Assembly (NCBI GenBank): GCA_964479945.1
Contig: CAYZNS010000005.1
Location: forward strand, 1-61,401
Source: an uncultured Candidatus Saccharibacteria bacterium
GTDB lineage: Bacteria; Patescibacteriota; Minisyncoccia; Ryanbacterales; 2-02-FULL-48-12
Direction: 5' to 3'
DNA length: 61,401 nucleotides
Shown: in pieces, positions 32,698-34,194 of the stretch
Layout: every line of letters starts with the position of its first letter
Position numbering within the stretch: position 1 is the first letter of the stretch
Translations under genes and position numbers: made by a program
Notes under the pieces: generated by a model
The model's input: only the letters and a program-made list of their open reading frames with translations
Told to the model about the DNA's origin: nothing
Database searches by the model: none

Positions 32698-33408
32698 ATG
32701 ATAGATCTGGATAGTAATGGTATACGTGAGGCAGAGCAACGGATAGGCGTCTCGTTTTCCGACCAAAATCTCTTATGGACGGCGTTCACGCATCGGTCAT
32801 ATCGTAATGAAAACCCGCGTTGGCCGCTGCCGCACAACGAACGTCTTGAGTTTTTGGGAGACGCGGTAATTGAGATAGTGGTAACGCACTATCTCTACCG
32901 CACCTATCAGAATCCCGAGGGAGAGCTTACCGCGTATCGCAGCGCGCTGGTAAATGCAGAAATGTTGGGGCGCGTCGCACAAAAGATTGGCCTCAACGAC
33001 CTGCTTCTTCTTTCCCGCAGAGAAGCAGAAAATATTGGCAAAGCCCGTACATTCATACTGGCAAACGCGTTTGAGGCGCTCGTAGGAGCCATCTATCTTG
33101 ATCAAGGATATCGGGTTGCTGAAGAGTTTCTCATGCGCGTGCTGATAGCTCGAATGCCGGAGGTTTTGGAACAGCGCCTTTATCGGGATCCGAAGAGTGA
33201 TTTTCAGGATATCGCACAGGAGGCTCTTGGTATCACGCCCATGTATCAAGTATTGAAAGAGGAAGGGCCGGATCATAAGCGGTACTATGTGGTGGGCGTG
33301 TTTCTTGGCAGCAGGATGGCAGGAAAAGGAAAGGGACTAAGCAAAAAGGAGGCGGAGCGGGAAGCGGCGCGCGTGGCTCTTGCGCGCGAATTTCCACATC
33401 GCCAATAA
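32698..33408 (+). CDS. rnc: Ribonuclease III (catalytic signature intact) with dsRBD
   Basis: HNERLEFLGDAV, ANAFEALVGAIYLDQG, dsRBD ending SKKEAEREAA. Confidence 0.93.
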   Translation: MIDLDSNGIREAEQRIGVSFSDQNLLWTAFTHRSYRNENPRWPLPHNERLEFLGDAVIEIVVTHYLYRTYQNPEGELTAYRSALVNAEMLGRVAQKIGLNDLLLLSRREAENIGKARTFILANAFEALVGAIYLDQGYRVAEEFLMRVLIARMPEVLEQRLYRDPKSDFQDIAQEALGITPMYQVLKEEGPDHKRYYVVGVFLGSRMAGKGKGLSKKEAEREAARVALAREFPHRQ

Positions 33409-33432
33409 CGAACAAACGGGAGGAGTACGCGT

Positions 33433-34194
33433 ATGCAAGATTTCAAAGCCGCGCGGTTGGAAGAGAAGCTTGGCGTTTCATTTCGCAACAAGAACTTGCT
33501 GAAGGCCGCATGCACGCATCATTCTGCGCAGCCGAAACGGAACGATACGTATGATAACAACAGTCACCTCGACAACATGCGCCTTGAGTTTCTGGGCGGG
33601 CGCGTAATTAAATTGCTGGTGGCGAAGCGGTTGTTGACAACAAACTCTCCCCGCGCGTGGTTCCCTTTGGAAAAGCTGCAGCTGATACTGCGGGCGTCCA
33701 CATTGTATCGGCCACTCGCGGATGTTGCCGAGAAACTGGCGCTGGGCGATTTCTTGGTTTGCGACAACACTACCCGCAATACGCTTCGCGCGAATGCCAT
33801 ACATCGCGCGCACGTGCTTTCCGGTATGCTCAAAGCGATAGTTGCCGCGATGTATCTGGATCGTGGGGAAGGCACGGCGGAATTGTTTCTGGATGACGTG
33901 TTTTTGCGGGATATTGAAATACTTGTCCAGAAAGGGGAGCGGGTTGATGTGCGCAAGTATTTGCAGGGACTGGTGGAGGAGAAGTTCGGGTCCGCGCCGA
34001 CATTCACGCTCTTAAATAGGCGTGAAGCGCAGATAACGAACAGGTGTACCGTCGGCGTATTTTTGAAGGAACGGCTGCTTGGGAGAGGGATGGGCGCGAA
34101 TGAGGACATTGCCCAGATAGAAGCTGCGAAGGATGCGTTGCTGCGGGAATTTCCAGAAGAAAGCGCTTCTACGGTCCCTGTTGTGGTGCGATAA
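33433..34194 (+). CDS. RNase III paralog with degenerate active site
   Basis: NMRLEFLGGRV (signature Glu to Met, Asp to Gly) and SGMLKAIVAAMYLD (second acidic pair lost); dsRBD retained. Confidence 0.85.
   Translation: MQDFKAARLEEKLGVSFRNKNLLKAACTHHSAQPKRNDTYDNNSHLDNMRLEFLGGRVIKLLVAKRLLTTNSPRAWFPLEKLQLILRASTLYRPLADVAEKLALGDFLVCDNTTRNTLRANAIHRAHVLSGMLKAIVAAMYLDRGEGTAELFLDDVFLRDIEILVQKGERVDVRKYLQGLVEEKFGSAPTFTLLNRREAQITNRCTVGVFLKERLLGRGMGANEDIAQIEAAKDALLREFPEESASTVPVVVR

Follow-up and report, generated by a model that had tools for sequence, protein, structure and literature searches.

A conserved, predicted non-catalytic RNase III paralogue encoded directly behind an active-type RNase III gene in an operon of uncultured Patescibacteria

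Organization of the rncA-rncB operon

The DNA analysed here (the window) is a stretch of 61,401 nucleotides (nt), contig CAYZNS010000005.1, from the genome of an uncultured member of the Patescibacteria of hot-spring origin, in which an active-type ribonuclease III (RNase III) gene, designated rncA, is adjoined by a second copy, designated rncB, whose product has lost the residues for catalysis. Both open reading frames (ORFs) were found at 32698-34194 on the + strand, as the original prediction had described them, and the second one of 253 amino acids (aa) is intact. No third RNase III-like ORF was found within the 61-kb window. The two genes are the last of a four-gene unit with a common promoter and a common terminator, and each is preceded by its own Shine-Dalgarno sequence. 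The features of this unit are given below, with the basis of each assignment in parentheses.

27836..27863, + strand: sigma-70-like promoter site TTGACA-16-TACAAT, 11/12, preceding the four-gene operon (strong match, by consensus only)
27945..32054, + strand: operon gene 1, fusion protein of 1369 aa, in which a DEAH/HA2 helicase is joined to sigma-70 regions 2-4 and a DnaA C-terminal helix-turn-helix (Pfam)
32051..32680, + strand: operon gene 2, 209-aa protein with a helix-hairpin-helix domain like the C-terminal domain of the RNA polymerase alpha subunit (alpha-CTD) (Pfam)
32698..33408, + strand: rncA, 236 aa, RNase III domain and a domain for the binding of double-stranded RNA (dsRBD), with E48, E51, D55, N123 and E126 (Pfam, TIGR02191)
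33409..33432, + strand: rncA-rncB spacer of 24 nt, with the rncB Shine-Dalgarno sequence GGGAGGAG at 33418-33425 (sequence)
33433..34194, + strand: rncB, 253 aa, predicted non-catalytic RNase III paralogue (Pfam, alignment, AlphaFold2)
33832..33834, + strand: codon AAA for K134 of rncB, equivalent to E117K, with the same residue in 3/3 rncB proteins (alignment)
34208..34241, + strand: intrinsic-terminator-like hairpin of 10 bp, 6 GC (34208-34231), followed by a T-run and closing the operon (sequence)

The start of the 209-aa gene overlaps the stop of the fusion gene, and the Shine-Dalgarno sequence of rncA lies at 32683-32694. The 24-nt spacer of the window is devoid of a hairpin, unlike the corresponding spacers of two other contigs, L001 and L009, that carry the same gene pair. 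In the window rncA and rncB share a reading frame, with a single TAA and eight sense codons between them. A read-through fusion of the two was considered and rejected, the shared frame being probably due to chance, since in L001 and L009 the frames of the two genes differ.

Assignment of rncA

The rncA protein was matched by the Pfam families RNase III (E 1.6e-38) and dsrm (E 3e-11), passed the cut-off of the NCBIfam equivalog model TIGR02191 (228.7 versus 166.25 bits) and was aligned with bacterial RNase III structures at E values of 1e-41 to 1e-44. Among the GTDB species representatives its closest relatives, at 47-59% identity, come nearly all from genomes labelled as Patescibacteria (candidate phyla radiation, CPR). 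The ERLEFLGD and NAFE motifs claimed for the first copy are real and lie within NERLEFLGD and LANAFEAL, and the residues at the positions of Escherichia coli E38, E41, D45, D114 and E117 are E, E, D, N and E, respectively. The asparagine at the D114 position (N123) was compared with the corresponding residue of 246 RNase IIIs, mostly from Patescibacteria, among which N was found in 136, D in 67, G in 15, S in 13 and C in 12; the first RNase III domain of Drosha also aligns with Asn there. Judged from this alignment, the Asn in NAFE is the majority state and no mark of impairment. By its domains, model score, signature motif and catalytic carboxylates, rncA is assigned to the bacterial class 1 RNase IIIs (EC 3.1.26.3).

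Catalytic residues, fold and class of rncB

The rncB protein shares 35% identity with rncA (E 9e-30). It was matched by the Pfam RNase III domain (E 3.7e-16) and not by Pfam dsrm, and it missed the TIGR02191 cut-off (99.8 versus 166.25 bits) though the alignment covers positions 1-216 of the 219 in the model. Its motifs read NMRLEFLGG and LSGMLKAI, and M49, E52, G56, G131 and K134 stand at the positions of E. coli E38, E41, D45, D114 and E117, respectively, where two orthologues (see below) have A/E/D/G/K and A/E/N/G/K. Across the three proteins E117 is replaced by K in 3/3, D114 by G in 3/3 and E38 by M, A and A, and the D45 position drifts between G, D and N; the canonical state was found in 241/246 of the relatives for D45 and in 241/246 for E117. 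The original prediction, in which all four acidic positions were said to be lost, holds for the positions that it named, but the glutamate equivalent to E41 (E52), one of the four metal-binding carboxylates, is retained. The E. coli mutant rnc70 (E117K) binds double-stranded RNA (dsRNA) without cleavage, and the D45A mutant is inactive (PMC8708148, table 1). Because these mutants lack cleavage, we infer by analogy that rncB is catalytically inactive, the change equivalent to E117K being the decisive one.

In the AlphaFold2 model of rncB (mean predicted local distance difference test score 86, predicted template modelling score 0.71) an RNase III-plus-dsRBD-like fold was obtained, in which a nuclease-like domain (about residues 1-167) is followed by a degenerate dsRBD-like domain (about residues 172-239) with the order alpha-beta-beta-beta-alpha. 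The best Foldseek matches of the model were the full-length bacterial RNase III structures 1o0w, 2nug and 7r97 (probability 1.00, E to 7e-13); mL44 chains were also among the matches, scoring below bacterial RNase III. The dimer fold and the dsRBD, both of which had been taken as kept in the second copy, are therefore retained as a predicted fold, but the dsRBD escapes detection by Pfam dsrm and its RNA-contact residues have been replaced. All three RNA-contact regions of the dsRBD consensus (E/Q in helix 1, the loop GPxH and KK in helix 2) are affected: E179 is changed to G, D and D in the three proteins, Q182 to E, GPDH to EAQ(I/L) or EARL (EAQITN in the rncB of the window) and K224, at the start of helix 2, to E.

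What has been kept was estimated from the 77 alignment columns with a conservation of at least 85% among 112 canonical enzymes. All three rncB proteins agree with the canonical state in 37 of the 77, including N-x-R-L-E-F-L-G and Y-L-D-x-G, which belong to the helices building the dimer interface and the valley, and the hydrophobic core; 30 of the 77 have been given up by all three proteins, among them acidic residues and the three RNA-contact regions of the dsRBD. As judged from its residues, rncB lacks three defining features of class 1 RNase III (curated score, catalytic residues and dsRBD contacts), for which reason the annotation 'ribonuclease III' is unsuitable, and it has the RNase III-plus-dsRBD fold according to the model. 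Assignment to Mini-III, which is defined by an RNase III domain only, fails on the C-terminal dsRBD-like domain of the model. A U1-like zinc finger or PUF domain of the type found in the KREPB proteins of trypanosomes is likewise absent, as RNase III domains only were detected by Pfam and all relatives are bacterial RNase IIIs.

These features bear on a first alternative, in which rncB acts alone, binding structured or double-stranded RNA as a non-cutting B/B homodimer and so shielding, sequestering or remodelling it, as a natural counterpart of rnc70. It would agree with the E. coli E117K protein, in which RNA binding is kept and cleavage is abolished (PMC8708148), with the dimer-core motifs retained in rncB and with the net positive charge of its nuclease-like domain, +2 to +6 against a canonical mean of -3.75. 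That charge, however, lies inside the canonical range of -11 to +12 and proves nothing; for the same reason a charge complementarity between an acidic rncA and a basic rncB nuclease domain was discounted as evidence. The replacement of all three RNA-contact regions, including the Lys-to-Glu change in helix 2, and the missing Pfam dsRBD speak against such a binder, and the strict adjacency of rncB to an active rnc is left unexplained by it. The role of the dead copy as a protector or chaperone of dsRNA, offered in the original prediction, was judged less likely in view of a dsRBD without RNA-contact residues; overall, a solitary RNA binder is a real but unlikely alternative.

Orthologues and selection

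Homologues of rncB were searched for exhaustively in two ways, with a word index covering 5.8 billion clusters and with a profile run against 1.84 billion sequences that represent about 15 billion proteins. Only two orthologues were obtained from these about 15 billion proteins, P0002 and P0121, which are 44% and 43% identical to rncB, respectively, and 84% identical to each other; then comes a steep fall in score, down to the level of ordinary RNase IIIs. A search of the GTDB species representatives yielded no close relative of rncB. The contigs that encode P0002 and P0121 (L001 and L009) are short, and on each of them the rncB gene comes directly after an active rnc, with a homologue of the 209-aa gene also upstream. 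In all, 3/3 rncB genes directly follow an active rnc, and the live-then-dead order occurs in two lineages. No second RNase III-like ORF was found within 6 kb on either side of rnc at any of 80 loci (0/80) in GTDB genomes, nearly all labelled as Patescibacteria.

The ratio of non-synonymous to synonymous substitution rates (dN/dS) of the dead copy, proposed beforehand as a check, was calculated between L001 and L009. The value for rncB (0.155, at an unsaturated dS of 0.52) is as low as that for its active neighbour rncA (0.181), the upstream gene having 0.23, and it points to purifying selection on rncB. The constraint is equal over the protein, with 0.153 for the nuclease-like and 0.157 for the dsRBD-like domain. 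Between the window and L001, dN was higher for rncB (0.57) than for rncA (0.31), dS being saturated. No within-population variation was found that could give a second estimate: in every other contig and in four sequencing runs the operon has the same sequence (100% identity).

A functionless, dying duplicate would be in line with the lost catalytic residues and with the faster divergence from the window to L001. It is contradicted by the dN/dS of 0.155 and by intact ORFs, each with its own Shine-Dalgarno sequence, in all three members, as well as by the 37 canonical columns and many further invariant positions that the three proteins have in common and by the confidently predicted fold; such a duplicate is highly improbable. 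Since the ORFs are intact and the dN/dS is low, rncB is, as read from its sequences, a conserved, catalytically disabled paralogue maintained by selection and not a pseudogene or decaying copy. The invariance of K117 and G114 along with the drift of D45 is the pattern expected if catalysis is unselected but the protein is selected. Thus rncB has the degenerate site, the conserved fold and the maintenance by selection that define the partner in a live/dead RNase III class, and its standing as a conserved pseudo-enzyme, confined to a very narrow lineage, has good support.

Several further observations were made in the course of these searches. Immediately downstream of rncB in L009, and convergent with it, is the gene of the RNase P RNA at 1872-2375 on the - strand (Rfam RF00010, 175.6 bits), and a partial copy lies at the end of L001; in the window no such gene follows rncB. 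Two further dead-type RNase III-like proteins, both of them unrelated singletons, were recovered by the profile search, P0197 (L090 311-1003), with D45R and E117K, and P0201, with E38G, E41R, D45E and E117Q, and so sporadic loss of RNase III catalysis occurs elsewhere. A general rule that dead copies adjoin live ones was rejected because of P0197, whose 1.5-kb contig carries no neighbouring rnc. By the same search P0122 (480 aa) was recovered, in which two complete RNase III-plus-dsRBD units stand in tandem on one polypeptide; both carry the equivalents of E41, D45 and E117, with Gly at the D114 position, and P0122, judged from its sequence, seems to be a naturally occurring fusion of two RNase IIIs of the bacterial type.

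Origin of the pair

The helicase-sigma-DnaA_C fusion, in which a sigma factor has a highly unusual architecture, is 1337-1371 aa long, and its full-length homologues (L091 3354-7367, L092 3113-7228) are 39-40% identical. It is known from at least three Patescibacteria lineages, always after ParB and a reverse-strand FtsK-gamma ORF, and in each lineage it is followed by an alpha-CTD-like gene of about 200 aa and then by rnc. The full arrangement (ParB, FtsK-gamma ORF, fusion, 209-aa-like gene and rnc) is carried by L091 and L092, and a partial version by L008. Homologues of the 209-aa gene are located directly upstream of rnc in L001, L009, L008, L091 and L092, and in the three related lineages L008, L091 and L092 the operon has a single active-type rnc (P0007, P0268, P0272).

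Trees were constructed by the neighbour-joining method with 200 bootstrap replicates. The rncB proteins were monophyletic in 200/200 replicates and rncA and rncB were sisters in 0/200, and 170/200 showed a split with rncA and at least 12 of the 15 mainstream enzymes from Patescibacteria on one side, and rncB and the three enzymes resident in the operon on the other. In common with part of the operon-resident group, rncB has a basic residue that follows the G-D of the signature motif, and it also shares the motif YLDRGxGxxELFL with them. Against a small profile of the closest relatives of P0007 the rncB proteins scored 147-178 bits, and against an rncA-like profile 123-129 bits, i.e. 24-49 bits lower. 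A recent tandem duplication of rncA as the source of rncB was rejected on the basis of the 0/200 sister bootstraps and the higher score to the P0007-relative profile. With moderate confidence, rncB is instead regarded as the original RNase III of the operon, which would have been disabled yet kept after a mainstream-type rnc had been inserted ahead of it. Two caveats apply to this reading, a possible distortion of the neighbour-joining trees by long-branch attraction and a comparison set picked in part for its similarity to rncB.

The conservation of the operon with the fusion protein in four lineages also bears on a further alternative, in which rncB serves, independently of rncA, as a protein-binding adaptor for the fusion, the alpha-CTD-like protein or a ribonucleoprotein such as the ribosome. 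A dsRBD without RNA-contact residues and the mL44 chains among the structural matches would suit it, and parallels exist in the non-catalytic mL44 of mitochondrial ribosomes and in dsRBDs that do not bind RNA and mediate protein contacts. However, mL44 scored below bacterial RNase III, and the single rnc of the sister operons is of the active type, suggesting that the operon needs RNase III activity and not a scaffold. An adaptor role is accordingly a rather remote prospect.

Proposed asymmetric dimer

RNase III is active as a dimer, with one strand cut by the site of each subunit. In E. coli, engineered dimers of a live and a dead subunit retain the binding and nicking of dsRNA, one live subunit being sufficient (Meng and Nicholson 2008 and Conrad et al. 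2002, as summarised in PMC3867540). By analogy, rncA and rncB may form an A/B heterodimer with one working active site, which would cut one strand or act on asymmetric targets; we give this reading, the simplest and the most likely of those considered, a chance a little below even. In it, both proteins would be made from one transcript, and A/B heterodimers would exist alongside A/A homodimers. Each A/B dimer would have one catalytic site and one RNA-binding dsRBD and would cleave a single strand of a duplex, or would act on asymmetric targets that are poorly handled by the symmetric homodimer. The live/dead heterodimer is plausible because of the co-transcription of the two genes, the invariant NxRLEFLG and YLDRG motifs of the dimer core and the published nicking by E. 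coli heterodimers (PMC3867540), from which heterodimerisation and one-strand cleavage are inferred.

The following points weigh against the heterodimer. The rncB family is tiny (three proteins from two lineages), and the selection estimate is that of a single pairwise comparison. The prediction for rncB is that of a single chain, three sequences are available per protein, and the link between A and B is one of genetic linkage only; genes of one operon need not encode interacting proteins. The retained dimer motifs, as far as sequences tell, would support a B/B homodimer equally. Finally, a conserved terminator-like hairpin of 10 bp followed by ATTTTCTT lies between the active and the dead rnc at L001 1038-1060 and L009 1110-1132 and is absent from the spacer of the window; this hairpin may set the gene ratio, in which case the two genes would be expressed unequally there.

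That hairpin would, by the same token, fit rncB as a negative regulator that titrates rncA into poorly active or inactive heterodimers and so tunes the total RNase III activity without new specificity, as read-through of it would regulate the dosage of rncB. The same linkage and dimer-core evidence as for the heterodimer with one working site applies to such a regulator, and E. coli YmdB, which is said to control RNase III activity at the protein level, would be a precedent. In the window, however, the genes are 24 nt apart with no intervening signal, and constitutive co-expression of an inhibitor seems wasteful. Engineered heterodimers, moreover, remain active on one strand (PMC3867540), and a regulator of this kind is regarded as distinctly unlikely.

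Candidate substrates

Stems of 7-13 bp about 8 kb upstream of rncA had been put forward in the original prediction as 'guide stems' and candidate substrates. Two structured RNAs of about 270 nt were located there, at 23700-23985 and 25255-25535, flanking an unannotated ORF (24032-25201). Each is composed of three hairpins with stems of 10-13 bp and large loops containing GCUGG...GAAYGG, and both end in an identical terminator. Between the copies the first and third stems differ yet still pair, the middle stem being nearly identical, and the fold z-scores are -6.0 and -5.6. No match for the two arrays was found in Rfam. A substrate of RNase III has a minimum of about 11 bp and an ideal length of 22 bp (PMC3867540). 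The arrays were rejected as substrates: they are genuine structured RNAs, but nothing was found that ties them to RNase III, and their stems are at or below the minimum and far from 22 bp (PMC3867540).

Intergenic inverted arrays of heptad repeats (about CAAARTK) were observed as another class of structured elements, which fold into helices of 20-40 bp and some of which enclose small GC hairpins. Their locations are as follows.

4479-4631, 20400-20494, 35853-36015, 49522-49644, 56155-56267, 58685-58805 and others: heptad-repeat elements, intergenic

The fold z-scores of the elements at 35853-36015 and 56155-56267 are -7.7 and -9.5, respectively. Elements of this family may serve as bidirectional terminators or as processing sites, or may be miniature mobile elements, and judged by helix length these long hairpins would be better candidate substrates for RNase III than the short stems of the upstream arrays.

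Genomic setting of the window

The sequence around rncA and rncB recurs at 100% identity in hot-spring and subsurface metagenomes, and no sequencing run with RNA containing the locus was found. A phage origin of the window, to which the thymidylate/dUTPase cluster had pointed, was ruled out by its cellular genes, among them the SUF system, CysRS, PGI, a ROK kinase, KAS, thymidylate metabolism and several RNA polymerase sigma factors. The cluster in question (36751-42336) comprises thymidylate kinase, thymidylate synthase, dihydrofolate reductase, three dUTPase/dCTP-deaminase paralogues and dCMP deaminase, interspersed with a Y1 (IS200-like) transposase. It is followed at about 42330-42820 by two short ORFs that correspond only to the N- and C-terminal parts of glucose-6-phosphate dehydrogenase, which is likely a gene remnant. 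Helix-hairpin-helix domains like the alpha-CTD occur in proteins other than RpoA, namely in the 209-aa protein (32051-32680), at the C-terminus of a sigma factor (34487-35278) and in the fusion protein. The last nucleotides of the window, 61089-61401, are taken up by a tandem repeat in which periods of 27, 54 and 108 nt are nested and up to about 11 copies are present; it lies inside a reverse-strand ORF (60914-61366).

Comparison with known systems

The bacterial RNase III is the textbook symmetric homodimer, and the asymmetric forms (Drosha, Dicer and the editing nucleases of trypanosomes) are viewed as eukaryotic inventions. The pairing of a live with a dead RNase III is known from trypanosome mitochondria. 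In a literature search for a bacterial pseudo-RNase III no description was found; a review of 2021, in which the maize RNC1 is the sole RNase III marked as inactive, names no bacterial example (PMC8708148). If the proposed pairing is true, rncA and rncB would be a simple system for the evolution of an asymmetric, one-strand-cutting RNase III from a homodimer, rncB would be a natural test of the effect of E117K in vivo, and the pair might yield a compact RNA nickase. The apparent history of rncB exemplifies one origin of pseudo-enzymes, in which a resident enzyme is disabled but kept once a second copy has arrived. The value of the system is limited by a family of three members, all from uncultured organisms.

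Among bacterial proteins, Mini-III and the second RNase III genes of Bacillus and cyanobacteria resemble rncB as extra genes of the RNase III family in a bacterial genome. To our knowledge, all these paralogues are catalytically active, and Mini-III is without a dsRBD, whereas in rncB the dsRBD fold is present and the catalytic residues are lost. The non-catalytic mL44 and the maize chloroplast RNC1 are alike in that the RNase III fold has been reused for the binding of RNA or ribonucleoprotein (PMC8708148), but they are eukaryotic, organellar and not encoded alongside an active partner.

Drosha and Dicer are similar in having two diverged RNase III domains in an asymmetric pair, with the Asp-to-Asn change of the first Drosha domain shared by rncA, and in the association with an RNA helicase, which is fused in Dicer and co-operonic with rncA and rncB. 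They differ in that both of their domains are active and on one polypeptide. A further difference is that the helicase of the window belongs to the DEAH/HA2 type and is part of a fusion with a sigma factor. A bolder version of the proposal, in which rncA and rncB would form an obligate asymmetric dimer and, together with the DEAH helicase-sigma-DnaA_C fusion, a strand-selective RNA-cutting module coupled to transcription, i.e. a bacterial counterpart of Dicer and Drosha at a two-gene stage before fusion, is a long shot.

The likeness to E. coli rnc70 (E117K) lies in the same substitution at the same catalytic glutamate. rnc70 and the engineered heterodimers are, however, laboratory mutants of one gene, whereas rncB is natural, separately encoded and altered at many further positions, including the dsRBD contacts. 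The closest parallel in arrangement is given by KREN1-3 and KREPB4-8 of the trypanosome editing complexes, where an active RNase III is combined with a related partner of degenerate site, so that one site is present and one strand is cut (PMC9508840, PMC6800513, PMC3867540); for rncA and rncB this is a proposal. With one competent RNase III domain in each KREN/KREPB pair, the mRNA is cut and the guide RNA is spared (PMC3867540, PMC9508840). The trypanosome proteins are mitochondrial components of a large eukaryotic complex, with a zinc finger and a PUF domain instead of a dsRBD, and show no specific kinship to rncB; rncA and rncB, in contrast, are bacterial and of the plain RNase III-plus-dsRBD build, and their two genes follow each other within one operon. 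By analogy, the working of rncB would most resemble that of the non-catalytic partners of trypanosome editing, to which it is unrelated, and that of E. coli rnc70.

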